Shown in pieces: positions 4,764 through 34,649 of a stretch of DNA of 64,000 bases. Positions within the stretch are counted from its first letter, which is position 1, and every line of letters begins with the position of its first letter. The stretch covers positions 192,001 to 256,000 of the forward strand of contig CAVQGX010000031.1 in NCBI GenBank assembly GCA_963712115.1, read 5' to 3'. A model generated the notes under the pieces. That model saw only the letters and a list, made by a program, of their open reading frames with translations, was not told the DNA's origin and did no database searches. Both the position numbers and the translations under genes were made by a program. The DNA comes from an uncultured delta proteobacterium (GTDB lineage Bacteria; Desulfobacterota; Syntrophobacteria; BM002).

Positions 4764-7133
4764 ATGAGCACAGGCACGGAGCGTTCACCATCGTCAGGAG
4801 TTGGTATCTCCAAGGCCACAATCCGTGAGGACATTCTCCAGAGTTTCCCAGGGCTCTTCGGGACCAAGAAGATAAACGGCCGAGAAGTCAATGTGGAACA
4901 GGAGATTGCCGCACTTGCCCAAGAGTTGCATCCCAAGATCGCCGCGGTCCTCACCGCGCGTCGGGCCTTACTGCGGTCTTCCGCGCCGGTCCGCGAAAAA
5001 TATGGTTGGCCGAAGTGGGACGACACCTTTGAGGATCCCGTAACCGAGCAGTTCTGGACATATCGCCAGATTATCCAGGGCTTGATTGATAACTTTCTCG
5101 GTAAGGACAGCGACTGGAGCTGGCGGCTAAACGACGAAGTGGACATCCCCAAGGACGCCCACCCTTTGACCAACCCCGGCTTGGAGCTCACCGGGCCGTG
5201 GCATCCGCTGGACATGGCCTTCAAGGCCTTGGACAGCCCGGCCCCCATGAACATGCCGGACTTTGAAGACGCCGCGCCGCCCCATTTCCGTCCCCATGGC
5301 ACGCCCGAGAATGAGCCGTTAGGGATTTTCGCGGCCGTGGAAAACGCCAAAGAGATTTTCGAAGGCACCTGGGATAACCGCGCCTATGAGGTGGTGAAGA
5401 AAGGCGGAACGCGGGAGTACAGGATCAAGGCATCCCCGGCGCAGTGGCCGACTCGGTTTGCTCGGCCTCCGAGCATCCACGTGCGATATGATCACATCAC
5501 GGTCGAAGGCCAACCGGTGCACGGGATTATTCCCATCACCCTTCTCTGGGCGCTCAACAATTACGAATCCCTCACACGGGCCGGCACCGGCCTATATTAT
5601 TACATCCCGAAGATTCAGACCCCTCAGGAAGCTCTCATTGTGGAGAAGCTCCTGGCACGGGTGGAAGGCTTGATCGGCGTCCAACCCGGCACCATCAAGA
5701 TCAAAGTCCTCTATGAGGAGGGGAATGCGGGCCGGTTCTTGCCTGTGATCGCCTGGGTCCTGCGACGGAGACTCCTTGGGACCAACGTCGGCCGCTGGGA
5801 CTACCTCGCCAGCATCATTGAGATGTGGAAGGACGACCCGCAGGGCGTGTTTCCCGATCCACAGTCCATCGGCATGGCCACCCCGAACATGATTGCTTAT
5901 CAGCGGTATAATGCGCTGATGATGCTCATGGCCGGCATGAAGAATGGCGTGCTCAGCCAGGGGGCTCCCATTGGCGGGATGGCGGCGGTAATGATCTACC
6001 AACCGGCTGATCCCTACGGCCGCTCCCAGTATAACCCGGTGGCCCTGCGTGGAATGGTAATCGACAAGGTGCGAGAGCGGTTGCTGGGTCTTATCTTTGT
6101 GCCCGAGGAGTCGCTACCCGCAGGTGGACAGCCTACCCTGGAAGACATCCTTGCCGGAGGGGTGAAAGGACGACTCTATGATGCCTATCGGCAAAGCTGG
6201 GTTGCCAGCCCCGAACCGGCCTATGTGGCCGCCGGCAATGAACCTTTGCGGGCTCCCGTGACGCAGCTCCAGGCAATCCTCGATGCGGAGCGAGAGGATG
6301 TGGAGGTGAAAGGCAAACCTGTGCCGACGGTCGCCAGTGGTCTCTCGGAGGCGGAGCGGCAGCTGCTGCAATCCCGCGGCTTGTTGAACCCGCAGGGCAA
6401 GATCACCCCCTGGGTCGTCACCAAGGACATGTTCAGTAGGCCGGAGAAACTCTTCACCCAAGAACTTTGGGACAGCATCTACTCCGTGCCCAAGGGTGAG
6501 ATCACCATTGAGCACATCCAGCATGCCTTCTACATGGCGGCCAACTACGGCTTCCAGATTCTCAACGGTAATTTCGCGGCCGCCATCGACGACTACGAGC
6601 TTTCACTGCGTTTCATGAATGATCTCGCCACCTACCGGATCGATGTGTCCTGGCTGTGGACTCTTCTCCATCACCAAGCCGTCATCACCAAGGACGGCTA
6701 CCTCAAAGGGCCGGCGCTCACCGAGGATGGACTCAATCCGGCTGAAAACGTTTTCGAGGTCAAGGCCGGGACCCGCCTCACCAAGGAGCTGTTCCAGAGG
6801 TTGTGGGACTACCACAATGAATGGACGTCGGCGTTCTTCGCCGAGCTGGACCGCCTCGGCAATCCAGGCCGCTTTGACCGCGCCAAGGCGCCTGTCATTA
6901 TGGAGCTCCTGAAGCGCCAGCTACTTTCGCCGAGCTACATCCAGCACAGCGCCCGGGTGCTCTTCGTTTTGGCGCCGGCGAACGAACAGGAGCGCGAGCA
7001 GCTCCTCGAGGCGATTTTCACCCTCTCCCGCGAGGAAGTCGTCAAGCGCGCCCAAGCAGCCGCGCTGAACAAGTCCGCCTTGGATGCCCACGATTATATC
7101 CATGACATCTTTCCGGGAATCGAAGGAGAATAG
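4764..7133 (+). CDS. aceB: Malate synthase, enlarged and divergent AceB/MSA-like protein (789 aa)
   Basis: ELTGP, MPDFEDA, YYYIPKIQ, IKIKVLYEE, NVGRWDYLAS, PIGGMAA and FMNDLATYRI align with malate synthase A motifs; aceA and aceK are nearby; GGAG RBS. Confidence 0.75.
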   Translation: MSTGTERSPSSGVGISKATIREDILQSFPGLFGTKKINGREVNVEQEIAALAQELHPKIAAVLTARRALLRSSAPVREKYGWPKWDDTFEDPVTEQFWTYRQIIQGLIDNFLGKDSDWSWRLNDEVDIPKDAHPLTNPGLELTGPWHPLDMAFKALDSPAPMNMPDFEDAAPPHFRPHGTPENEPLGIFAAVENAKEIFEGTWDNRAYEVVKKGGTREYRIKASPAQWPTRFARPPSIHVRYDHITVEGQPVHGIIPITLLWALNNYESLTRAGTGLYYYIPKIQTPQEALIVEKLLARVEGLIGVQPGTIKIKVLYEEGNAGRFLPVIAWVLRRRLLGTNVGRWDYLASIIEMWKDDPQGVFPDPQSIGMATPNMIAYQRYNALMMLMAGMKNGVLSQGAPIGGMAAVMIYQPADPYGRSQYNPVALRGMVIDKVRERLLGLIFVPEESLPAGGQPTLEDILAGGVKGRLYDAYRQSWVASPEPAYVAAGNEPLRAPVTQLQAILDAEREDVEVKGKPVPTVASGLSEAERQLLQSRGLLNPQGKITPWVVTKDMFSRPEKLFTQELWDSIYSVPKGEITIEHIQHAFYMAANYGFQILNGNFAAAIDDYELSLRFMNDLATYRIDVSWLWTLLHHQAVITKDGYLKGPALTEDGLNPAENVFEVKAGTRLTKELFQRLWDYHNEWTSAFFAELDRLGNPGRFDRAKAPVIMELLKRQLLSPSYIQHSARVLFVLAPANEQEREQLLEAIFTLSREEVVKRAQAAALNKSALDAHDYIHDIFPGIEGE

Positions 7134-7576
7134 CCATCGAGGTTGAGACAAGATTCGGAAGAAAATCTTAACCTACACTCTAACGTTCTAGAGGTCTCAC
7201 CTACATACAGTGTTCATCACACTGGAGTTGGATATAAGTCTTTCTGCTACCGATTTGGTTTTATGGAAGTCTGCGAAAACTCGCCATACACATATCATAT
7301 ATTGAATCTTTAAAAATTTTCCATCTTGTCAAGATAACTGAAATTGCGAATCATACTTACGAGTGCCAAATATCCAATTATGAGATCCTGCCCAAGTTAT
7401 TGGATACCCAAAACCGAACGCCACATTAGCCAAATTTTATTGTGGACCAACTTGCCAGATAGTAGTAAGATTTTTCCACATTTATAACCATAAATGCCAA
7501 ATATTTTAATTCCGAAGATTAGGCTGAATTAAGTTAATTTGTTAAAATAATTAAAAAATCGCAATAAAAACTCTTT

Positions 7577-7606
7577 TGGCATGCTTTTTTCATCCAAATG
7601 TAATAC
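7577..7606 (+). promoter_or_regulatory. Sigma54-like promoter variant followed by a TGTAATAC box
   Basis: TGGCATG-CTTT-TTTCA (7577-7592; -24 matches, -12 reads TC instead of GC) after an AT-rich tract; TGTAATAC at 7599-7606. Confidence 0.35.
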
Positions 7607-7636
7607 ACCAAACGTGATTTAAACCGTAAGATACCT

Positions 7637-8134
7637 ATGAAAAAAGATGTAGTTTACTCGATGAGAATGAATAGTAGGGTCCGTGAGGCCCTCAGGAAGG
7701 CGGCAACTAGAGAACGTCGCACCGTTGCCTCCCTATTGGATAAGATTGTTACGGATTACTTGGCAAAGGAAGGCTTTCTTGCCGGTCCTGAGTTTGGTGC
7801 TGAACGGCGAAGGTTTCCCAGAAAGAAAATCACTTTGCCAGCCAAGACTCATCTTGAGACAAAAACTGAAGAAACCTTTCCAGGCGTGGTGCTTGATATC
7901 TCGATGGGAGGAGTCTTAGTAACTTATCCTAAAGGATCCGAAATTAGGTTTTCATCCATGGGGCAACTGCCTAATTTTGAGCTTTGCTTTACTCTTCCCA
8001 GCGAGAAAGAAGAATTATGCTTCGACTGTGAAGCTCGGCATATGCGCGACACTGGAGACGAGATCCAAGTCGGTGCGACCTTTAGCAATCCCAAGGGGAA
8101 CTATCTGCAGAAGTTAAATAGCTATCTCATGTAG
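7637..8134 (+). CDS. Ribbon-helix-helix-like DNA-binding domain fused to a PilZ (c-di-GMP-binding) domain
   Basis: N-terminal YSMRM...VREALRKAATRERRTVASLLDKIVTDYL has the RHH pattern; C-terminal ERRRFPR (RxxxR) and DISMGG (DxSxxG) are PilZ motifs. Confidence 0.75.
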   Translation: MKKDVVYSMRMNSRVREALRKAATRERRTVASLLDKIVTDYLAKEGFLAGPEFGAERRRFPRKKITLPAKTHLETKTEETFPGVVLDISMGGVLVTYPKGSEIRFSSMGQLPNFELCFTLPSEKEELCFDCEARHMRDTGDEIQVGATFSNPKGNYLQKLNSYLM

Positions 8135-8348
8135 AGAAGTACACGATCGGAAAGAGGAGGAAACAGCATTGCGCATAAGACATTTCATGATCTATGGTTG
8201 CTTGTAATGTTTTTTTTTCGTCTTTGCGTATTACAAATGATGCTTTAAGAAACTCATAGTCGCTTGTCATGGATAAACTCTTAAAAGACAAACCAAGTTC
8301 CAAAACCTTACTCCTTAAGAATGAGTTTAGTGATGGAGGGAACTCCTC

Positions 8349-10013
8349 ATGGAACCATTCAAAGAAGGGAGGGTTATTATGAATCGCCTAAAACCGATAC
8401 TCACAGTTTTACTGGTCTTTTGGATATGTAGTGGACTGCTGGTATCTGCAGTCCATGCAAAAGATCAGGGGTCCTCAAGGATGATTATTGTCTTTCAAGA
8501 AAAAGTTCCTTGGGAAGAGGCTAGAGAGTACGTCCAAAGCTGGAATGACTATGGAGTCTCGGTCGTTACAGAACTTCCATTTATTAATGCCATGGTTTTG
8601 AGCGTACCAACAGGGATTTCTTCTTCTGAACTGGCGGCCGACCCTCGAGTAACAAGTGTTGAGAGCAATCAGAAGGTGGGGATTCAGGCGGTCAGCGCAA
8701 CAGCGGATGGTGGGGCCGCGGATGGTGGAGCCGCGGATGGTGGAGCCGCAGATGGTGGTGCCGCAGACGGTGGTGCCGCGGATGGTGGAGCCGCGGATGG
8801 TGGAGCCGCAGATGGTGGTGCAGCAGACGGAGGTGCCCAAGATTCAATACCTTTTTGGAGTTTTATACAGCCTGTGTCCAAACCGCCGGAGGACAATCGT
8901 CCGTGGGGCATCCTTAGTCTTTATGAGCAGCTTAGAGACCCTGAGCTACTAACGGACACGTTCGAGCCAGTGGACACGCCGTGGGTGATTCGGCTGGCCT
9001 TGAGAAGAATGGCCAGAAATAAGATACGGGTGGCAATTCTCGATACTGGAGTGGATTATGCCCATCCAAGCCTTGCTGGTAAAGTGAAAGGCGGTTTTGA
9101 TGTTTTCACCATGAGCGCAGAATTGCCTGAGGATGATAATGGCCATGGTACGCACATAGCAGGAACTCTCTGCGCTCGTCTGGATGATGATCCATTTGGC
9201 CTAGCGCCCCCAATTGAAATTTATTCGGTTAAAATTCTCGACAAATATGCCAGCGGGGACCTGGTTAACATCATTCTAGGACTAAGGTGGGTAATTGCAA
9301 ATGATATAGATGTCGTCAACATGAGCATCGGCTACCGAGAAGACAGTCAGGCCATGAGATTGGCAATTAGAAAAGCCTACGAGGCTGGCGTGATCATGGT
9401 GGCAGCCGTTGGAAACCATTCCACCTGGGATGCGCCTTCTCCTGGAGCTGCAGCGGATGGTGGAGCAGCAGATGGTGGAGCCGCAGACGGTGGTGCTGCG
9501 GATGGTGGTGCTGCGGATGGTGGTGCAGCGGATGGTGGAGCCGCAGATGGTGGTGCAGCAGACGGAGGTGCTGCGGATGGTGGTGCAGCGGATGGCCTGG
9601 CCTGGTATTCAGTAATGTATCCAGCTCGCTACCCGGAAGTCATCGGAGTGGGTGCCAGCACTCCCTACGGAGAGATAGCCGGTTTTTGTAATTCCGGACA
9701 AGAACTGGAAATAACCGCACCTGGAACTAACATTGTTTCCACCAATGTATGGAAGTGGGGCGGTTTTGGCGTTTGCAGTGGTACCAGTATGGCTACTCCT
9801 CACGTAGCCGGCGCAGTTGCCATGATGCTGGCCTTAGACCCGGATCTTAGCTCAACAGAAATAAGCACGATTCTGAAGGAGTCAGCAATAGAGCTAACAT
9901 ACTCTCCGGGTATAGGTGACCTTAATCTCACTGGGGCCCTTGAGATGGTCTACATCAGAGCCCTCAAAAAGGCTTGGAGGACCAGATGGCTAGGACGACG
10001 ACAATACCGCTGA
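8349..10013 (+). CDS. Secreted S8 subtilisin-like serine protease with I9-like prodomain and two (ADGGA)9 arrays
   Basis: Signal peptide ending VHA (likely start ATG 8379); catalytic motifs ILDTG, DNGHGTHIAG, oxyanion AAVGN and GTSMATPH are all intact. Confidence 0.9.
   Translation: MEPFKEGRVIMNRLKPILTVLLVFWICSGLLVSAVHAKDQGSSRMIIVFQEKVPWEEAREYVQSWNDYGVSVVTELPFINAMVLSVPTGISSSELAADPRVTSVESNQKVGIQAVSATADGGAADGGAADGGAADGGAADGGAADGGAADGGAADGGAADGGAQDSIPFWSFIQPVSKPPEDNRPWGILSLYEQLRDPELLTDTFEPVDTPWVIRLALRRMARNKIRVAILDTGVDYAHPSLAGKVKGGFDVFTMSAELPEDDNGHGTHIAGTLCARLDDDPFGLAPPIEIYSVKILDKYASGDLVNIILGLRWVIANDIDVVNMSIGYREDSQAMRLAIRKAYEAGVIMVAAVGNHSTWDAPSPGAAADGGAADGGAADGGAADGGAADGGAADGGAADGGAADGGAADGGAADGLAWYSVMYPARYPEVIGVGASTPYGEIAGFCNSGQELEITAPGTNIVSTNVWKWGGFGVCSGTSMATPHVAGAVAMMLALDPDLSSTEISTILKESAIELTYSPGIGDLNLTGALEMVYIRALKKAWRTRWLGRRQYR
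8703..8837 (+). repeat. Coding tandem repeat, 9 x 15 bp (ADGGA), between prodomain and catalytic domain
   Basis: GCN GAY GGN GGN GCN nine times, varying only at synonymous positions. Confidence 0.97.
9453..9596 (+). repeat. Coding tandem repeat, 9 x 15 bp (ADGGA) plus ADG, inside the catalytic domain
   Basis: Same unit, nine full copies plus a partial, about 12 codons after the AAVGN oxyanion Asn. Confidence 0.97.
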
Positions 10014-10098
10014 TAATGACTGTCTTGCAGTTTATGAATCTCCTAGTAGTTCTCCAAATCGTGAACTGTTCTGATGCATTTCGAGAAAGGGGGACCTC

Positions 10099-12060
10099 AT
10101 GAAAGGCAAAAGTAATAGCCTTCCACCTAAAGGAGGCATTAGAACCCGGCTCCACAGTAAGTTCATGGTCGGTATCGTTATACTCCTTTGCTTGTTGATG
10201 TCAGCCACCATCCTAGTGGTCGAGCATCGAATGCGGGAATCCATCCTGGACGAATTTCTCAAACGCGGCCGTTCTGTTGCCAAGAACTTGGCGGCTATGA
10301 ATACGAACTACGTGACCACCTACAATTATGTAAACGTCGAACAAAGTGTGGAAAAGATAACGGAGGAGAACGGCCTAGCATACGCAATGGTCTTGCTTTT
10401 TGACGGCGAAGTGGCAGCATATAGTGGACTCAACGACATAAAGCAGGAGGTCTTGAGCGGTGAAATATATCAACGCGCCCTTCAAGCCGGCGACGTACTG
10501 GTTCAATATGGAAAGTTTGGCGCGGCAGAGGATGAATTCTGCGACATTGCCGTACCCATATTACTCAAAGATCAGAAGTGGGCTACGGTGCGGGTTGGTT
10601 TTTCGCTCAAGAATATGCAGGCGGCCATACTACAAACCCGAAAGACTTTGTTCCTTTTAGGGTTGGTCGGGCTTATTGCTGGTTGCTTGGGCTCACTTTT
10701 GCTAGCGCGTCGCGTCACAAGACCAATTGGCGGTTTGGTCGATAGTGTCGAAGCGATTTCAAATGGCGAGTACGAACGAGAAATAATGGTCAGTACTAAT
10801 GATGAAATAGGCTACCTAGGTAAACGCTTCACTGCGATGCAGGAGACTTTGAGAGATCACATCAAACTGCTGATTGATACTAACATGGAGTTGACTCAGA
10901 GTAATCAGCGTCTTCAGGGTCTATTTCAAGTCAGTCAGGCCATGAACTCACTGCAAAACCAGGAAAAGCTCTATGATTTGATTCTGGAAGCCGCCCTGAC
11001 AGCAACCGATGCTCAAGGGGGTTCGCTCATTTTACTCGACCAGGATCATCGCGCCCGAATCGTAGCTATCGCGGGGAGCAAAGACGAGGAAATTGGCTCA
11101 TTAAGCAGTAATGAAGAGAGCAAGTTTGACGAGGGATCTATCTCTAGGTACAAGTCTTTTCTGACCAATCCAGGCATTCGGCCATTGCTATTGCAGTTCG
11201 AGCATTTTGAGAAAGATATGCCCTTTTTAACTATGAGGCTCGACTCCAATCCAGAATTTGAATTGCTTTCTATACCGCTGCAGCAGGCAGAGACCTTGCT
11301 AGGGTTCATTAATCTTACGAGAAAAAGCAAGAAGGGTGAGATAAACTCTGCTGAAATGCAGACTCTTTCCATCCTTAGCAGTCACGCCACTGCATCTTTG
11401 GAGAACAAGGACCTCTTTCAGAAGCTAGAAGACGCCTACCTAAGCTCTATTAAATCACTCGCTAAGACTCTCGAGTTTAAAGACGAGTACACGCATGGCC
11501 ACGCTGAGCGTGTCGCCGAGATGTGCGTGAAAATCGGAAAGAGGATGAATATGGATGAAAAATCTTTAAAGGTGCTCTACAATGCAGCCTTACTACATGA
11601 CATTGGCAAAATTGGCGTTATGGAAAGCATTCTGCATAAAAATTCCTCTCTTGAAACAAAAGAATGGTCGGACATTAAAAAGCATCCGGTCATAGGGGAA
11701 GAGATTCTCAAACCTATTATTACATTGCGAGACGAATGCAAAATCGTAAGACATCACCACGAGAGGGAAGATGGCAAAGGATATCCTGATGGTATTTACG
11801 GAAACCGGCTTTCTTTGTCAGAGAAGATAATCATCGCTGCTGACTCGTACGATGCAATGAATTCAAAACGAGCTTATCGTGCACCTTTGGATCCAGCAAC
11901 CATAAAAAATGAATTGGTAACAAATAAGGGCAGTCAGTTTGATCCGGAAGTGGTGGATGTGCTATTGGAAGTCTTGGATGAGGAAGGAACTTCCGGATTT
12001 AGAACTAGCTCATCGCACAAAGTTATCCCCTTTCATCCAACTACTCACGATGTTTGCTAA
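10099..12060 (+). CDS. Membrane sensor with periplasmic domain, HAMP, GAF and HD-GYP cyclic-dinucleotide phosphodiesterase domain
   Basis: Two TM segments; HAMP (RRVTRPI...DEIGYLGKRF); GAF-like middle; KDEYTHGHAERVA, LLHDIGKIG, HHHEREDGKGYPDG, ADSYDAM, GSQFDP. Confidence 0.9.
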   Translation: MKGKSNSLPPKGGIRTRLHSKFMVGIVILLCLLMSATILVVEHRMRESILDEFLKRGRSVAKNLAAMNTNYVTTYNYVNVEQSVEKITEENGLAYAMVLLFDGEVAAYSGLNDIKQEVLSGEIYQRALQAGDVLVQYGKFGAAEDEFCDIAVPILLKDQKWATVRVGFSLKNMQAAILQTRKTLFLLGLVGLIAGCLGSLLLARRVTRPIGGLVDSVEAISNGEYEREIMVSTNDEIGYLGKRFTAMQETLRDHIKLLIDTNMELTQSNQRLQGLFQVSQAMNSLQNQEKLYDLILEAALTATDAQGGSLILLDQDHRARIVAIAGSKDEEIGSLSSNEESKFDEGSISRYKSFLTNPGIRPLLLQFEHFEKDMPFLTMRLDSNPEFELLSIPLQQAETLLGFINLTRKSKKGEINSAEMQTLSILSSHATASLENKDLFQKLEDAYLSSIKSLAKTLEFKDEYTHGHAERVAEMCVKIGKRMNMDEKSLKVLYNAALLHDIGKIGVMESILHKNSSLETKEWSDIKKHPVIGEEILKPIITLRDECKIVRHHHEREDGKGYPDGIYGNRLSLSEKIIIAADSYDAMNSKRAYRAPLDPATIKNELVTNKGSQFDPEVVDVLLEVLDEEGTSGFRTSSSHKVIPFHPTTHDVC

Positions 12061-12088
12061 GTGATGAGTTTATAAAAAAGGAGAGGCA

Positions 12089-13711
12089 ATGCTGGGATTT
12101 TACGGTCTAAGCTATCGTCGCATAAGGGCCCTGGGTATTATTGCGATGTTACTGCTTGTGGGTCTCTCACCTATTAGTGGTCGTGCAGACAACAAACAAT
12201 ACGGAGGAGAATACCGAATTCCACTGGCGAGTGAACCAGATTCCCTCGATCCTGCATTTATCACCAGCATTTATGCTGTAAATGTGGCAATGAACTTATT
12301 CGATGGTCTAGTGGAATTTGACAAAGATGTAAACGTAGTTCCTGCGATTGCCCGAGTATGGAAGATTTCCAGGGACCACCGCACCTACACGTTTTTTCTT
12401 CACAAGGGGGTGACATTTCACAATGGGCGTGAGGTTACGGCCGAGGACTTTGTGTTTTCATTCAGACGCATTCTCAGCCCGAAAACGGAATCACCAGTAG
12501 CATCGCTTTTCTTAAACATCCAGGGTGCGAAGGCATTTCACGAAGGTAAGAGTGCACGTATAGATGGTCTGCGTGCTCTTGACCCATATACTCTCAAGAT
12601 ACAACTGGAACAGCCCTTCGCGCCTTTTCTCTCCATTCTGGCTATGGCCAACGCGAAAGTAGTCCCCAAAGAAGAGATAGGGCCGCTTTTTGGCAAACGA
12701 CCAATTGGCACGGGTCCCTTTATTTTTAGCAACTGGCAATCGGGTGGAGAAATTCTCCTTACGGCAAATGAGAGATATTACGCGGGACGTCCTTTTTTGG
12801 ATACTCTTCGCTTCCGTGTCTATCCCAATATCGAGTGGGAAAAGATTTTTGATGACTTCGAAAATGGCTTGCTCGATCAAGCCATCATTCCTAGCAAGAA
12901 ATATGATCTTATCATGTCAGATTCTCGGTATCTTGAACGCTACAGATTGATCAGCAAACCTACACTGAATTTGGTCTATATTGGCATGAATGTAAATATG
13001 ACTCCATTCAACGATTACCGTGTACGGCAGGCATTCTCGCATGCAGTGAACACTGAGGCAATCGTCAGAGACATCACCAAAAGGGGCAGCATCCCTGCAA
13101 AAGGCATTCTCCCTCCTGGTATAGCAGGTTTTGATCCTCACTTTGAAGGATATAAATACGACCCACAAAAAGCAATGAAACTGCTCGAGGAAGCGGGCTA
13201 TCCACAAGGTCGCGGCATCCCGCCAATTCAGATCTGGACTGTATCTAAAGCTGAAAGTGTGCAGCAGGAGTTGAGTGAATACCAGCGTTACCTGGCCGAG
13301 ATTGGCATTGAGCTGATACCCAAGACAGCCGAAAACTGGAGTGAGTTTATAAAGTTCATCGATGAAAAGAAGGCACCCATGTACTATGCCGCTTGGTATG
13401 CAGACTATCCTGATCCTGACAATTTTCTCTACGTCCTCTGCCACTCTCAGAGTAAAACTAATCGCATGGGCTATCACAACCAGAAGGTTGATGAATTATT
13501 GGAGGAAGCGAGGCGAGAAACTGACTACCTGAAAAGGGTAGATCTATATCGCGAGGTCCAAAAGATAGTCATGCGAGAGGCTCCAATCATCTGTCAGCAT
13601 GTAAACGGCTTCAATTACCTTTTTCAGCCCTGGGTGAAAGGAGTACAGGTTAGCTATCTTGGAGCCGCTTACGTTGCATTCAAAAGCGTCTGGCTTGAGA
13701 AATCCCAATAG
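12089..13711 (+). CDS. Family 5 (OppA/DppA/NikA-like) solute-binding protein without adjacent permease or ATPase
   Basis: Signal peptide; EPDSLDPA, NLFDGLV, TFHNGREVTAEDFVFSF, PIGTGPF, WYADYPDPDNFL. Confidence 0.9.
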   Translation: MLGFYGLSYRRIRALGIIAMLLLVGLSPISGRADNKQYGGEYRIPLASEPDSLDPAFITSIYAVNVAMNLFDGLVEFDKDVNVVPAIARVWKISRDHRTYTFFLHKGVTFHNGREVTAEDFVFSFRRILSPKTESPVASLFLNIQGAKAFHEGKSARIDGLRALDPYTLKIQLEQPFAPFLSILAMANAKVVPKEEIGPLFGKRPIGTGPFIFSNWQSGGEILLTANERYYAGRPFLDTLRFRVYPNIEWEKIFDDFENGLLDQAIIPSKKYDLIMSDSRYLERYRLISKPTLNLVYIGMNVNMTPFNDYRVRQAFSHAVNTEAIVRDITKRGSIPAKGILPPGIAGFDPHFEGYKYDPQKAMKLLEEAGYPQGRGIPPIQIWTVSKAESVQQELSEYQRYLAEIGIELIPKTAENWSEFIKFIDEKKAPMYYAAWYADYPDPDNFLYVLCHSQSKTNRMGYHNQKVDELLEEARRETDYLKRVDLYREVQKIVMREAPIICQHVNGFNYLFQPWVKGVQVSYLGAAYVAFKSVWLEKSQ

Positions 13712-13967
13712 TTAAATAAGAAAGCCTGGATAGCAAACAGTTAAAGCAAATAATCACATCGTATGTCACTCATGGAGACTGAAGATTTTATAGTTCTGCT
13801 ATAGATGTTAACTTTAACCTAGCGAGAAAAACTTTCGTTACTATTCTCATATCTTCAATGTCAGCCCCTTCTATCCAGCAACATAAAATTGTCGGACTCG
13901 AAGCTCAGGTCTTGATCATTAGAGAAATGATCTCCATGCTCCATGCCCCATGCTCTATGCTCTATGC

Positions 13968-14600
13968 CTATTGCACTCGAAAGGGAGCGCCTTCAGGTCC
14001 AAGCTTGATCCCTTCAATCAGTATATTGACTTCAACCTCATCCCCTACGGCGCCACCGCCTTTTTCACCAAGGCCGTAGTCGATCCCGTAGTCGCTCCGT
14101 TTAATCAAGGTTGTGGCCTCGAAACCACTTCGATAGCCACCCCATGGGTCAGGACCGAAGCCGAGGATCTTGAATGGCAGCTTCACTGAACGTGTTACCC
14201 CGTGTATGGTCATTTCACCTGACATGACCCCTTCGTTCTCGCCCGCAACTTCCACCGAGGTGCTCACAAAGCGCATGATCGCGTATTTCTCCACGTGAAA
14301 AAAATCCTTGGAGAGCAAATGAGCGTCTCGTTTTTCATGGTTGGTGTCTACGCTATATACATTGATTGTGGCATCCACTCGAGACGCTTCTAGATTGCCT
14401 CTATCAAGCCAGATGGTTCCGGTTACGTCAGAAAAAGTCCCCGACACTTTAGAGAACAGGTGACGAATCTTAAAATTGGCCATGCTGTGAACCTTGTCAA
14501 TCATATAAGTCTCCATTTCTGCCCGGACTGATAGAGGCAGAAGGAGTCCAATAACTCCGGCTATCAACACCGCAGTGAATATAATTCTACGGTAGTTCAT
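13968..14600 (-). CDS. YceI family periplasmic lipid/polyisoprenoid-binding protein
   Basis: IDKVHS...FKIRHLFSKVSGTF, RDAHL, TIHGVTR, DPWGGYRSGF. Start reset to ATG 14600 (GGAGG RBS); the upstream ORF extension is repeat-derived. Confidence 0.88.
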   Translation of the reverse strand: MNYRRIIFTAVLIAGVIGLLLPLSVRAEMETYMIDKVHSMANFKIRHLFSKVSGTFSDVTGTIWLDRGNLEASRVDATINVYSVDTNHEKRDAHLLSKDFFHVEKYAIMRFVSTSVEVAGENEGVMSGEMTIHGVTRSVKLPFKILGFGPDPWGGYRSGFEATTLIKRSDYGIDYGLGEKGGGAVGDEVEVNILIEGIKLGPEGAPFRVQ

Positions 14601-14617
14601 GATTAAACCTCCCATTG

Positions 14618-14712
14618 CGATTTTCGATTTCGGATTGCGGATTGCGGATTGAAAAATAATAAGACGGAAATCCAATTAGAATTCCGCAATCCGCATTCAC
14701 AAATCCGCAATC
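14618..14712. repeat. 7-bp-period palindromic intergenic element (TTCGGAT/TGCGGAT ... ATCCGCA)
   Basis: Heptad runs face their reverse complement; same family at about 18518-18555, 30060-30080 and 34578-34610. Confidence 0.75.
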
Positions 14713-17072: not shown

Positions 17073-17224
17073 TTGAGTGGTTTTTCGTATTGACAATTCC
17101 TACATCGATTCTAATTTTACTTGAATACTTAGGGTTTCCCGATTTTAATTAATAATTGATAACTACAAGCGATCTGAATTGTTGGTCGACTTTGACAATG
17201 ACAATTCAGGGGGGAGGTTTTGAT

Positions 17225-18505
17225 ATGGATAGGCAGCAGCAAGTAGAAGCACTTGCAACTTCTTGGAAAACTGACCGACGGTGGCAAGGAATCCAAAGGA
17301 CCTATTCGCCTGAAGATGTGATCAGGCTCCGCAGTTCAGTTCAAATAGAATACACCCTTGCCCGGTTGGGGGCTGAGAGGCTCTGGCATCTGATGCATAC
17401 AGAACCTTTCGTCCGCGCCTTGGGAGCACTGACTGGCAATCAAGCGGTGCAGCAGGTTTTGGCTGGGTTGAAGGCAATTTACCTAAGTGGCTGGCAAGTT
17501 GCCGCTGACGCCAATACTGCCGGTCAAACTTATCCGGACCAGAGTCTATACCCGGCCGACAGTGTCCCAACAGTGGTCAGAAAGGTAAACAATGCCTTGC
17601 TCAGGGCTGATCAGCTGCAACATCTACACAGCAAAGGGGATATCTATTGGTTTGCCCCTATTGTCGCAGATATTGAGGCTGGTTTTGGCGGGCCGCTCAA
17701 TACTTTTGAAATAACCAAGGCCTGCATCGACGCCGGTGCGGCAGCCGTTCACCTGGAAGATCAGATATCCTCTTTGAAGAAATGCGGTCACATGGGCGGC
17801 AAGGTTCTGGCCCCAGCCTCGGAGTATCTGCGGAAGTTCGTGGCTGCCCGGCTCGCCGCCGACGTGCTTGGCGTGCCCACGGTGCTGGTAGCGAGGACAG
17901 ATGCCAACGGAGCCCGACTGACCCGAACCGACATCGACCCCCTTGACCATCCATTTTTAACTGGAAAGAGAACGGTAGAGGGTTACTTCGAGGTGAGGGG
18001 TGGGCTGGGACTCGCTATTGCCAGGGCTCTGGCCTATGCGCCCTATGCCGATGTCATCTGGTGTGAGACCTCCACTCCGGATCTGGGAGAAGCGCGGGAA
18101 TTTGCCCAGGCTATTCACGAAAAGTTTCCCAATAAGCTACTCGCCTACAACTGCTCACCATCTTTTAACTGGAGAAGGCACCTGGATGAGGCCACAATAA
18201 GTGGATTCCAAGAAGAACTGGGCGGTATGGGATACAAGTTTCAATTTGTCACCCTGGCAGGTTTCCACGCCCTGAATGCCTCCATGTTTGAGTTGGCTCA
18301 CGGTTACAAGGACGAGGGAATGGCTGCCTATTCCCGCCTGCAGGAACACGAATTCGAGATGGAGCGCGAAAGGGGTTACAGCGCGGTCAAACACCAAAGC
18401 TTTGTGGGTGCTGGGTATTATGATGAGGTTCAAAATGTGATTACTGGGGGCGAGACCTCCACCGCAGCCCTAACAGGCTCCACTGAAGAAGACCAGTTTG
18501 AGTAA
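17225..18505 (+). CDS. aceA: Isocitrate lyase
   Basis: [51 protein letters not shown]; ATG 17225 follows GGAGGT. Confidence 0.97.
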
Positions 18506-18669
18506 ACTACTAGGCAATTTTCGATTTCGGATTGCGGATTGCGGATTGCGGATTTGAGAGGGCATAGGGCATGGAGCATGGGGCATAGGGTTCAAAAACT
18601 TAGAGATCCAAAAATCCCCTGTCGTCTGACTTCTGACCTCCGATTTCTTTGTATTTTGGTGCCTAGTGT

Positions 18670-20409
18670 TTAGTGCCTAGTGTGCCATAACCGCTTGTTT
18701 TGCTCGTATGGAAAAATGTCCATTATTGTTCGTGCTTTGATTCGGGCCTGAATCTGATGCCAGAAATCCACCCCAAATAAATCTGAATGCTCCTGCCAGA
18801 ATAGATCCTTCAAATCTCCCTTTAGTCCCAAAAAATAACTGAACTCCTCGGGGAAAATGTCATTCTCACCAACATTAAACCACGGCTCGTCAGATAATTC
18901 GTCCTCGTAGCTTCTCGAGGGGGGCATAACCCGGAAAGTGCAATCAGACAAGAAAGAAAGTTCGTCGTAATCGTAGAATACCACCCTGTCGTGGCGAGTA
19001 ACCCCGAAATTTTTCAGGAGCATGTCACCCGGAAAGATATTTGTGGCCGCCAGGTCTTTGATCGCTTGACCGTAATCTATAATGGCTGCCCGGGCTTTGA
19101 CCTCATCAACCTCGCTCAGGTATACGTTTAGAGGAGTCACTCGCCTCTCTACATAGGCATGCTTGATAATCACGTGATCATCATTTACCTCCACGCTTCC
19201 TCCAGCCACACGTTGGAGTTGTTCTAATAGATCTTCTGAAAATCGGCTGCGGTCAAACTTCAGATGTTCAAATTCTTGCGCATCCACCAGGCGGCCGGCA
19301 CGGTCATGTTTGAACACCAGATAATACTTGGCCATCACCTCTTCCCGAGTTGTGTGCTTGTTGGGTGGGAAGCGGTCTTTAATCACCTTAAAAACCACAT
19401 CGTAATCTGGCATGGTGAATACCTCCATTACCATGCCTCTTTCGCCCTCTGCTATTTCGAACTTCTCTTTGGAAGAGTCAAGATGTTGCAGCAAATCGCA
19501 GTATAATTCGGACTTGCCATGTTTGTTGTACCCTATAGAGATGTAGAGCTCTGCAACTCGTTTTCGAGGCATAATAGACTTGAGGAAACTGACTAACTCT
19601 GCAGGTCTTCTGATATTGACCTGAAAATAGGATCGAGTAAAACTGAACAAAATGCTGACTTCGTTTTCGTCCAAGAGCACGGCATCAACTAGCATGCCTG
19701 CAGGAGTGTTGAGCAAAGCGAGCACAAGGGGAAAATCATGTGAAGCGGTGAAAAATCTGCCAACCAGGTAAGCTCCTTTACCTCGAAAAAGAACGGAGGA
19801 TAGCATATCGATTTTTTGGATAGAGCTGGAACTTCCAGCCTTGCTGAGGTGATCTTCTATTTTGGCGGCCACCAACTGGGCATCACGTCTGAGGTCTTCA
19901 TAAGCCACAGCAAAATTGTAATCCCTGAGTATAGTCTCGATCAAAGCAGCAGTTGTCTGCGGACTGGTGTAAGAGCGATAAACTGGTTGACTGATCTGGA
20001 CAGGTTGGGTTCTGGAACAGGTGTCGACGAATTCAATCTGAGGATTGACGCCAACCGTGGCAAAGACTCTTCTGGTGATAGAATTGAAGAAAGTCTCTGC
20101 AAGTTCCCAAAGATCCACTTTGGCGACCAGTTCAGCATAGACAACTTTCGCTCTCATCCATAGCTCAGGGTCATTGACTCTTCCGCCAAGCAGTCGTTTG
20201 ATCTCAACAACAGTTTCATCCACCACTTTTTTATACAGGTCCAGCCGCTCTCCTGCATCAGCTTGGATGCCGGGCCAGTCCCTGTTTTCAAAGCGCGCCT
20301 TGGCCCTCTGAGTAATCGCAGCATATTGCCCTTGGTATGAATCAAAAGCTTGGCGGATGGCTTTGGCAGCCAGCTCGGACAGGTTGTTAGTGGCTAAATC
20401 ATTCGTCAT
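18670..20409 (-). CDS. aceK: Isocitrate dehydrogenase kinase/phosphatase
   Basis: ELAETFFNSITRR, FSFTRSYF, GYNKHGKSELY, GMVM, HDRAGRLVDAQEF, NIFPGDMLLKNFGVTRH, VVFYDYDE. Confidence 0.95.
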   Translation of the reverse strand: MTNDLATNNLSELAAKAIRQAFDSYQGQYAAITQRAKARFENRDWPGIQADAGERLDLYKKVVDETVVEIKRLLGGRVNDPELWMRAKVVYAELVAKVDLWELAETFFNSITRRVFATVGVNPQIEFVDTCSRTQPVQISQPVYRSYTSPQTTAALIETILRDYNFAVAYEDLRRDAQLVAAKIEDHLSKAGSSSSIQKIDMLSSVLFRGKGAYLVGRFFTASHDFPLVLALLNTPAGMLVDAVLLDENEVSILFSFTRSYFQVNIRRPAELVSFLKSIMPRKRVAELYISIGYNKHGKSELYCDLLQHLDSSKEKFEIAEGERGMVMEVFTMPDYDVVFKVIKDRFPPNKHTTREEVMAKYYLVFKHDRAGRLVDAQEFEHLKFDRSRFSEDLLEQLQRVAGGSVEVNDDHVIIKHAYVERRVTPLNVYLSEVDEVKARAAIIDYGQAIKDLAATNIFPGDMLLKNFGVTRHDRVVFYDYDELSFLSDCTFRVMPPSRSYEDELSDEPWFNVGENDIFPEEFSYFLGLKGDLKDLFWQEHSDLFGVDFWHQIQARIKARTIMDIFPYEQNKRLWHTRH

Positions 20410-29985: not shown

Positions 29986-30224
29986 CATACCAGCGGTCAC
30001 AAAAATCAGTCAAGCATTCATTTGTCGCTGAGCATGGAGCATGGGGCATGGAGCTAGATGATTTCGGATTGCGGATTGTGAAATTTTTGCCAGCCGCCTT
30101 CTGTCGTCTGACTTCTGACCTCTAATCGCCTCTGTATCCGACCCTGGGGCCTTGTAGCGGTGCTTGGATGACCTTGTTGGTTGTTGAACCCCAGTAGAAT
30201 ATTACGATTTAGGGTCTCAGTATT

Positions 30225-34481: not shown

Positions 34482-34649
34482 GGCTTAAGGCGCAGGGCTC
34501 AAGGAAACCACCTAGGAGTCAGGGCTTCGAATTTCGAAATGATAATTCTAAGTTGAGTTGCGTATTTCGTCTTTTTCAAATCCGCAATCCGCAATCCGAA
34601 ATCCGAAATCATCTAGCTCCATGCTCCATGCCTAACGGATTGTGACTGC

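Follow-up and report, generated by a model that had tools for sequence, protein, structure and literature searches.

The 64,000-nucleotide stretch of DNA analysed here (the window; positions 192,001 to 256,000 of contig CAVQGX010000031.1, assembly GCA_963712115.1, from an uncultured delta proteobacterium) carries a cassette of four genes that encode a ribbon-helix-helix (RHH) protein with a PilZ domain, an exported subtilisin-type (S8) protease with two arrays of pentapeptide repeats, a membrane sensor with an HD-GYP domain, and a family-5 substrate-binding protein (SBP). The cassette is real and conserved, and apparently represents an undescribed, new variation on SBP-dependent signalling, with a protease as partner and with interchangeable read-outs. 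Coordinates are positions within the window, and G000 denotes the window's own genome. The four open reading frames (7637-8134, 8349-10013, 10099-12060 and 12089-13711) all lie on the plus strand with gaps of 214, 85 and 28 bp, as a first-pass annotation of this DNA had described them, and the domains that it assigned to their products also stand, with a weak match for the RHH part. One correction concerns the protease, for which alignment with homologues places the likely start at the ATG at 8379 (MNRLKP...); the first gap then becomes 244 bp. The features of the cassette are as follows.

7134..7636, plus strand: AT-rich spacer before the RHH-PilZ gene, a candidate promoter/operator, aligned with G020 and L125
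7637..8134, plus strand: RHH-PilZ protein, 165 amino acids (aa), with an N-terminal Arc/CopG-like RHH part and a PilZ domain at aa 56-164
8135..8378, plus strand: spacer between the PilZ and protease genes; GTATTACAAATGA follows a T-run, and a GGAGGG ribosome-binding site precedes ATG 8379
8349..10013, plus strand: S8 (subtilisin-type) protease, 554 aa as called, with signal peptide, propeptide, catalytic domain and basic C-terminal helix
8703..8837, plus strand: array 1, nine perfect ADGGA units (aa 119-163) where the propeptide meets the mature enzyme
9450..9596, plus strand: array 2, nine perfect ADGGA units and a cut tenth, aa 368-416 (units aa 369-413)
10099..12060, plus strand: membrane sensor, 653 aa, with a transmembrane segment (TM), sCache_3_2 (48-179), a second TM, HAMP (201-253), GAF (288-434) and HD-GYP (454-618)
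12089..13711, plus strand: orphan family-5 (DppA/OppA-like) SBP, 540 aa, with signal peptide and Pfam SBP_bac_5

The sensor matches the Pfam families sCache_3_2, HAMP, GAF_2, HD_5 (E 2.6e-28) and HD (E 4.5e-20), which upholds its description as a HAMP-GAF-HD-GYP protein and adds a periplasmic sCache_3_2 domain to the earlier list. The HD-GYP signature is HHExxDGxGYP; this domain carries LLHDIGK and RHHHEREDGKGYPDG (HHEREDGKGYP), and phosphodiesterase activity on cyclic di-GMP (c-di-GMP) or cyclic GMP-AMP (cGAMP) is predicted. The SBP matches Pfam PF00496 with an E value of 3.6e-88, and its best solved relatives are the peptide SBP 8upi (1.8e-70) and DppA 1dpp (5.4e-57). Its scores against NCBIfam equivalog models are all far below the cutoffs, and it is for this reason not considered an orthologue of DppA, OppA, GsiB or NikA. 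Residues D439 and K387 of the SBP align with DppA D408 and R355, which we take to clamp the amino and carboxyl termini of the peptide, and ligand binding is predicted; across 26 SBP sequences D439 is invariant and K387 nearly so. Genes for a partner ABC permease or ATPase are absent from the surroundings of the SBP gene in the window, in agreement with its earlier description as an SBP without a transporter, and from the annotated flanks (flanks only) of G020, G079, G187 and G378.

When the mature SBP was co-folded with residues 43-186 of the sensor the interface score (ipSAE) was 0.63, against 0.00 for the best control. Of 157 solved complexes 116 come up to this mark, as do 2 of 215 mismatched pairs; the counts are rough since our own alignments were used. 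The runs share at least 96% of contacts, with a predicted local distance difference test score (pLDDT) of at least 84 for the partners. The predicted interface comprises residues 85-97 and 478-480 of the SBP and residues 74-79, 100-104 and 156-161 of the sensor, and includes the invariant SBP residue W91 and sensor residues Y75 and W161. The co-fold supports, in silico, the contact of the SBP with the periplasmic domain of the sensor that the first-pass annotation had postulated. To our knowledge, no structure of a family-5 SBP bound to an sCache_3 domain has been solved.

The c-di-GMP receptor motifs of PilZ domains are RxxxR and D/NxSxxG. Both are found in the translation of the RHH-PilZ gene, as R58xxxR62 and D87xS89xxG92, and the PilZ domain matches Pfam above the cutoff (E 2.1e-08); c-di-GMP binding is predicted. 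The RHH part is weak by Pfam (Arc, E 9e-4, 19.4 bits against a cutoff of 20.4; RHH_5, 18.2 against 26), and the N-terminal RHH-like stretch is conserved among orthologues. Region 7134..7636 contains TGTAATAC (7596-7606, a minus-strand match to GTATTACAnnn) and TGGCATGCTTTTTTCAT. Among six orthologous regions aligned, GTATTACAAATGA, at 8228-8240, is common to the window, G010, G020 (with one base different) and L125; with the inverted core TGTAATAC upstream of the PilZ gene it forms a candidate RHH operator. The candidate operator GTATTACAAAT is kept between orthologous intergenic regions; the window shows no enrichment for it (10 matches found and 11.7 expected when up to two mismatches are allowed), and it stays a lead only. 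A separate conserved element, TGGCA(T/C)NNTTTTTTCAT, precedes the PilZ gene in the window (7578-7596), L014 and L125; it resembles a sigma54 -24/-12 element, but T replaces the -12 G. Outside the cassette, RHH-PilZ relatives directly follow the gene for a KaiC-like ATPase-HTH-cupin regulator in L188 (G056), L189 (G079) and L192 (G077).

Co-inheritance and read-outs of the protease, SBP and sensor

A search of 5.8 billion proteins with the window protease gave 194 matches at E <=1e-20, and the top 63 of these (E <=2.4e-70) together with the query were taken as a family of 64 members. By this comparison the protease belongs to a distinct and rare family, found mainly in Desulfobacterales-type records; its named sources are Deltaproteobacteria or Desulfobacterales metagenome-assembled genomes, Desulfonema magnum (P0048) and Desulfococcus multivorans (P0061). 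The family protease is present in 4 of 122 genomes of the class, in 3 of 401 sampled in the phylum, in 6 of 401 in the order of G378, and in 2 of 18 genomes of the window's genus, G000 included. A scan of genome contigs with the protease alignment picked up, through generic S8 motifs, nothing but unrelated subtilases from Firmicutes, archaea and elsewhere; no family member was among them.

We compared 20 protease genes at 16 loci in 11 genomes, counting once a G187 gene that is split over two contigs. A sensor with a homologous TM-sCache-TM-HAMP module adjoins the protease in 14 of the 16 loci, and an SBP orthologue does so in 12. The genes are arranged as PilZ-S8-sensor-SBP, sensor-SBP-PilZ-S8, sensor-SBP-S8 or regulator-S8-SBP-kinase; in G079 the S8 gene is divergent from the kinase-SBP pair, and the flanking genes are different in every genome examined. 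The association also holds when followed from the SBP. Among the 122 genomes of the class, SBP orthologues (at least 56% identity, E <=1e-204) occur only in the 4 that bear the protease, and the next tier, at 43-45% identity, is a paralogue. A metagenome scan with the SBP alignment gave 79 loci; a repeat protease is present in 17 of the 27 loci with an SBP of at least 55% identity, the other 10 contigs being short or ending at the cluster, and in 0 of the 52 loci below 55%. A quick tree places the 20 rows of protease-linked SBPs together in a single clade (SH-aLRT 100).

Genes that are functionally unconnected might be neighbours in this way through common descent or hitch-hiking within a few related lineages, given that the family is rare and that many of the loci come from related, non-independent Desulfobacterales-type genomes. 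Such an origin is very improbable in our view, because the same three partners recur in at least four gene orders, in two orientations, with differing flanks and with two sensor outputs. We consider it probable that the cassette is one functional unit. The co-conservation of all four genes that had been expected from the window is found for the protease, SBP and sensor, through several orders and with two outputs, but does not extend to the RHH-PilZ gene as a fixed member.

The sensor output is an HD-GYP domain in the window, G010, G020, G187, G378, G569 and G584, and a (hybrid) histidine kinase (HisKA-HATPase) in G079, G574, G642, G790, L120-122 and L133. In 10 of the 16 loci the protease gene is immediately preceded, on its own strand, by a gene for a transcription factor. 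The factor is an RHH-PilZ protein in seven HD-GYP-type loci (the window, G010, G020, both G187 copies, G569 and G584) and a REC-(PAS)-sigma54 activator-HTH protein in three kinase-type loci (G574 twice, and G790). Five matches to a sigma54-type promoter, for which we used the consensus as commonly known, were found in the 4.7 kb scanned, against about 0.2 expected by our own arithmetic; four are in kinase-type regions before protease genes and one is before the G584 sensor gene. Enzymes of c-di-GMP metabolism also follow kinase-type loci, as a REC-PAS-GGDEF-EAL protein in G079 and an HDOD-GGDEF protein in G574.

These sequence comparisons point to one periplasmic trio with two wirings, from HD-GYP sensor to PilZ protein or from histidine kinase to sigma54 regulator. 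The parallel position of the PilZ protein and the sigma54 regulator is the best support for the RHH-PilZ protein reading the output of the sensor and controlling the protease gene. Its proposed role as regulator of the operon is borne out to the extent that it stands upstream of the protease wherever an HD-GYP sensor occurs with such a factor; it is, however, missing from four complete cassettes (G378, G079, L118 and L119).

Some loci have a more elaborate organization. A region of about 26 kb in G642:C1 (~210,600-236,200; L198, L199 and L205) holds four repeat-protease genes, one with ADGGS and three with GDGGA units, together with a sigma54 regulator, two SBP-hybrid kinase pairs and one more hybrid kinase, and two unit types are here found beside two pairs. 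The second G187 copy (L107 C188, L108 C325) comprises PilZ, protease and sensor genes with an LVIVD-repeat gene at the place of the SBP, and the array 2 units at its contig ends are imperfect. In L131 (1011-5138) an sCache-HAMP kinase gene is followed by a gene for a REC-PAS-GAF-HD-GYP regulator and by two SBP genes, an arrangement that looks like an unfused form of the window sensor.

Pentapeptide arrays in the protease family

The window protease has a single Pfam match, to Peptidase_S8 (PF00082, E 1.5e-46). Residues D232, H266, N356 and S480 align with D32, H64, N155 and S221 of subtilisin BPN', and the S8 triad and oxyanion Asn are invariant across 34 family members. The AlphaFold2 model has a mean pLDDT of 79.2, with the subtilisin core and propeptide above 90. 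The propeptide (aa 42-111) is modelled with confidence as a family-conserved beta-alpha-beta-beta-alpha-beta module of I9-like form, although Pfam I9 gave no match at E <=0.01, and the chain ends in a basic helix (aa 527-553). Tandem Repeats Finder (TRF) locates two period-15 arrays at 8701-8837 and 9444-9595, and the 18 ADGGA copies first noted in the exported subtilase are confirmed as nine plus nine perfect units, with a cut tenth in addition. Array 2 replaces BPN' residues 161-163, beside the S1 pocket and directly before the equivalent of G166. The model leaves both arrays disordered (aa 115-164 and 361-418, pLDDT below 50).

Chance low complexity does not account for the arrays. A scan of G000 for three successive GG-xx-[DE] motifs gave 12 matches, all 12 inside the protease gene, and the reversed-pattern control gave 0; among the matches listed for the five genomes scanned, those in G000, G010, G584 and G642 are confined to family protease genes, and those in G574 fall in six protease genes at five loci. 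Tandem x[DE]GGx pentapeptides are present in 63 of the 64 family proteins, with ADGGA as the majority unit in 37, GDGGS in 8, GEGGA in 7, ADGGS in 5, GDGGA in 4, and SDGGA and GEGGS in 1 each. The array at the BPN' 161-163 site is found family-wide, while the array at the junction of propeptide and mature enzyme is optional. Units are fully uniform in 50 of the 63 repeat-bearing members, and in all 29 members with two arrays one majority unit serves both; P0016, with 12 ADGGA, 7 GDGGA and 2 AEGGA units, is an example of a mixed protein.

The 18 units of the window vary at third codon positions only, with variation in all five codons and at least 6 + 6 mutational events; the 37 units of G010 require at least 10 + 10. 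As 13 of the 45 single-base changes in an ADGGA unit are silent, 12 silent events out of 12 would arise by chance with a probability of about 3e-7 by our own arithmetic. By their codon sequences, the repeats are under selection at the protein level. From lineage to lineage the two outer positions alternate between Ala, Gly and Ser, and the acidic residue between Asp and Glu. The uniformity of the units within a protein, at up to three sites, combined with these shifts between lineages, suggests that a single sequence-specific site reads every unit.

The pocket of the enzyme is also characteristic of the family. The position of BPN' G166 is Met in 59 of the 64 members (M423 in the window protease) and that of BPN' E156 is His, Arg or Lys in 57, while the other 57 S8 matches in the list are diverse at both positions. 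In engineered subtilisins, a filled position 166 and a positive charge at 156 favour small or acidic P1 residues. By analogy, we infer that the S1 pocket of the family would fit cleavage inside the repeat units.

A reading of the arrays as pentapeptide repeats of the A[D/N]LXX beta-helix type, or as RTX repeats, was rejected: no such Pfam match was obtained, Gly occupies the centre of the unit, and the arrays are modelled as disordered. In L166 (943-2610) a distant S8 gene adjoins an SBP gene and has GEGGD units in the usual loop and five more immediately before the catalytic Ser, a third site; this gene has an in-frame TGA at VVS*GN. The protease gene of G020 (L014 7432-7890 and 7709-9262) is split by a frameshift inside array 1, which may be an assembly error or a real slip. 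Short-read contigs of DNA runs break at both arrays, and the natural copy number is unreadable from them.

A possible feedback circuit and the source of the ligand

The cassette can be understood as an autoregulated periplasmic signalling unit. In this scheme the orphan DppA/OppA-like SBP would dock on the sCache domain of the sensor and report a short, peptide-like ligand; the HD-GYP domain of the sensor would then alter the level of c-di-GMP, and the RHH-PilZ protein would read this level and set transcription of the protease gene directly downstream. The exported S8 protease would be both the regulated output and the maker of the SBP ligand, or the controller of its supply, closing a feedback loop. 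In the sister loci a histidine kinase and a sigma54-dependent response regulator would stand in for the HD-GYP domain and the PilZ protein behind the same trio. The direct basis for the scheme lies in the domains, the intact motifs, co-inheritance, the position of the transcription-factor gene and the in-silico interface of SBP and sensor. The direction of regulation, the peptide nature of the ligand and the protease as its maker are what we infer from these, and we regard the scheme as a whole as evenly poised between right and wrong. The same even balance applies to the narrower claim that the protease supplies the ligand of the SBP, whatever its source.

A number of observations weigh against this scheme. 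There may be a separate ligand that the sCache domain binds directly. Pairs of SBP and sensor without a protease are common, being found in 28 of the 52 lower-identity loci and additionally at G010:C8 and in G018, the latter two pairs belonging to the window's own bacterial family. In these pairs an SBP paralogue (about 40-48% identity) precedes an sCache-HAMP kinase whose input module is homologous, and the paralogues retain the D439 and K387 columns. As these protease-less pairs exist with their clamp residues, the ancestral ligand cannot depend on this protease; the comparison indicates that SBP-sensor pairs are older and more widespread than their link to the protease. The RHH-PilZ protein has full-length relatives (47-63% identity) in 12 protease-less genomes, in unrelated contexts, which also undoes the earlier view of it as a fixed member of the system. 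A transcription-factor gene is not directly upstream of the protease in G378, G079, G642, L118 and L119, and the sigma54-type match is absent from the two intergenic regions of the window. A promoter and terminator scan of 7000-14100 was at the level of shuffled sequence (12 against 9.9, and 6 against 6.5). Finally, two G574 protease genes stand alone, and one G574 locus (L202, with a sensor) and the second G187 copy have no SBP; two further G574 loci hold protease, SBP and sensor, and the same unit is used at all G574 loci.

The arrays themselves might be a built-in, multi-copy precursor, with the protease cutting its own loops, during maturation or through self-cleavage, to x[DE]GGx pentapeptides or to a circular permutation such as GGAAD. 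The SBP would capture the released pentapeptides and the sensor would relay their presence, and c-di-GMP or a phosphorelay would feed back on transcription of the protease gene. The arrays occur only in this family, with selection at the level of the unit and one unit at every site of a protein, and the five-residue size suits OppA-type pockets. Array 1 lies exactly at the cut site of the propeptide, the S1 pocket is family-specific, and the orphan SBP co-occurs only with this protease family.

Other evidence is neutral or adverse to the arrays as signal. The SBPs of G378 (with ADGGS units) and L119 (with ADGGA units) are 92% identical (497/540), and none of the 13 L119-specific changes, with the signal peptide excluded, converges on other ADGGA-type SBPs. 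ADGGS units pair with three separate SBP lineages, and the 19 residues specific to the SBP clade show no basic gain and the loss of Arg or His at three positions. The expectation that the unit type covaries with the SBP did not hold in this comparison, made at the level of sequence; a pocket effect may nonetheless exist. The catalytic domain would be nicked if array 2 were excised. Near the protease-less pairs there is no separate repeat precursor, and tandem peptide repeats outside protease genes are absent from L109-L205 except for one simple repeat in L198. On balance, the arrays as the source of the signal is a tentative reading that we find rather doubtful, although it takes up somewhat over half of the weight that we give to the protease as supplier of the ligand. 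The circuit first put forward for this DNA is sustained in its co-conserved trio, in the contact of SBP and sensor and in the presence of an upstream regulator, but not in a fixed role for the RHH-PilZ protein.

It is also conceivable that the protease is a regulated output only, with a matrix-remodelling or nutritional function, and that the SBP and sensor detect an unrelated environmental ligand. The repeats would then be a protease-resistant acidic spacer, a binder of cations or minerals, or a lid for the S1 pocket. This is consistent with the widespread SBP-sensor pairs that lack a protease and keep the same clamp residues, and with the upstream factor and the sigma54 matches, which show regulation of the protease and are silent on the origin of the ligand. 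The arrays are predicted to be disordered and their unit type does not covary with the SBP. Typical subtilisins prefer large hydrophobic residues, and the units, composed of Gly, Ala, Ser and one acid, are poor in these. We nevertheless think an output-only protease unlikely; it leaves unexplained why one SBP clade is exclusive to this protease family, why the SBP has no transporter, and why the units of each protein are identical despite synonymous drift.

The protease might instead act on the SBP, on the periplasmic domain of the sensor or on another envelope protein and so set the state of the sensor, in a mirror image of LapD-LapG, with the acidic repeats as a tether or an autoinhibitory loop. 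All three proteins have export signals or periplasmic domains, array 2 lies beside the S1 pocket, and the basic C-terminal helix could pair electrostatically with the acidic arrays. Regulated proteolysis of this kind does not account for the ligand-pocket residues that the SBP retains, or for the orphan G574 protease genes without an adjacent partner, and seems to us quite unlikely. No conserved cleavage motif came to light in the SBP or the sensor, though no search was aimed at one.

Related systems and setting of the locus

SBP-dependent sensors and c-di-GMP circuits are themselves well known. The cassette resembles Vibrio ChiS-CBP, where an SBP_bac_5 protein is the co-receptor of a sensor with a Cache-like periplasmic domain and a secreted hydrolase takes part in the loop, the ligand being made by secreted chitinases. 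The hydrolase of the window differs in being an S8 protease that carries repeat arrays and is encoded within the cassette; the SBP lacks a transporter, and the output of the window type is HD-GYP with PilZ or, elsewhere, a sigma54 regulator. Vibrio NspS-MbaA and LuxP-LuxQ are similar in that a periplasmic binding protein controls a membrane enzyme, but they use other SBP families and sensor domains and have no protease partner. A review of SBP signalling lists CBP-ChiS as an SBP_bac_5 sensor pair, names DppA-Tap, AibA-TlpB and CBP-ChiS as signalling systems with family-5 SBPs, and places the c-di-GMP enzyme MbaA among SBP-controlled GGDEF/EAL proteins (PMC8050422). The terms "protease" and "HD-GYP" occur 0 times in the main text of this review, and a related paper treats chitin sensing of the ChiS-CBP type (PMC12704726).

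The cassette also shares elements with the Phr systems of Bacillus, namely a subtilisin-type protease, pentapeptides, an OppA-type SBP and tandem copies. In Phr-Rap/Opp signalling, subtilisin-type proteases cut precursors to pentapeptides that an OppA-type family-5 SBP recognises. The Phr precursor is a separate small protein, its SBP feeds a permease, and its receptor is cytoplasmic; the candidate precursor here would be the protease's own loops, and the orphan SBP would signal across the membrane through the sensor. LapD-LapG likewise couples c-di-GMP signalling to a periplasmic protease, the cysteine protease LapG being controlled by c-di-GMP through sequestration by an inside-out receptor. 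It is unlike the present cassette, which has an S8 protease, an outside-in SBP-sensor pair and a PilZ transcription factor. Many identical short units in one polypeptide are known from plant BURP-domain cyclases and from Kex2-processed fungal repeat precursors. The BURP proteins are the more similar in having units in the same chain as the enzyme, but both are eukaryotic and yield modified natural products, whereas the units here are in surface loops of a bacterial protease. For the Phr systems, tandemly duplicated propeptides with several copies of a pheromone, processed by extracellular proteases, are also described (PMC11343458).

Literature searches on the unit strings, on tandem-repeat subtilases and on subtilisin with c-di-GMP and SBP, whose coverage left out most subscription journals, found nothing relevant. 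We did not find in print a protease as the obligate third partner of an SBP-sensor pair, a single periplasmic module with HD-GYP and a PilZ factor as one read-out and a kinase with a sigma54 regulator as the other, or a subtilase family with uniform pentapeptide arrays inside the catalytic domain. If the arrays are the signal they would be a new encoding of a peptide autoinducer, with enzyme and precursor in one polypeptide, in Gram-negative sediment bacteria, and would join a small number of peptide-based loops in Gram-negative organisms. Otherwise there is still the puzzle of why units in disordered loops stay identical while their codons drift. Desulfococcus multivorans and Desulfonema magnum, if cultured, would bring the family within reach of bench work.

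DNA nearly identical to that of the window is present in marine-sediment and estuary metagenomes, with 24 runs listed; in 7 of them at least half of the sampled words are present. One study includes two RNA libraries whose contigs match, at 99% identity or higher, stretches of each of the four genes (PilZ 7929-8079; protease 8805-9445, in pieces; sensor 10242-10708; SBP 12435-12615), which is weak evidence that the four genes are expressed, as carry-over of DNA is possible. Gaps in this RNA-library cover carry no meaning. No match to riboswitches or other RNA families was found in the window between 6500 and 14500 up to an E value of 1.

The flanking genes are unrelated to the cassette. A malate-synthase-like gene lies upstream, and genes for YceI, SDR, EamA, isocitrate lyase and AceK lie downstream, of which the YceI and SDR genes that follow the SBP gene are on the opposite strand. 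Genes of the glyoxylate shunt are found on either side of the cassette, the malate-synthase-like gene at 4764-7133 and those for isocitrate lyase and AceK at 17156-18505 and 18670-20409. Short tandem heptamers were located by TRF at or near gene ends, at 13932-13967, 14626-14651, 18523-18554, 18559-18590, 30030-30054 and 34578-34610; the heptamers in the tandem repeats of the window are CTCCATG, GATTGCG (twice), AGGGCAT, GAGCATG and AAATCCG.

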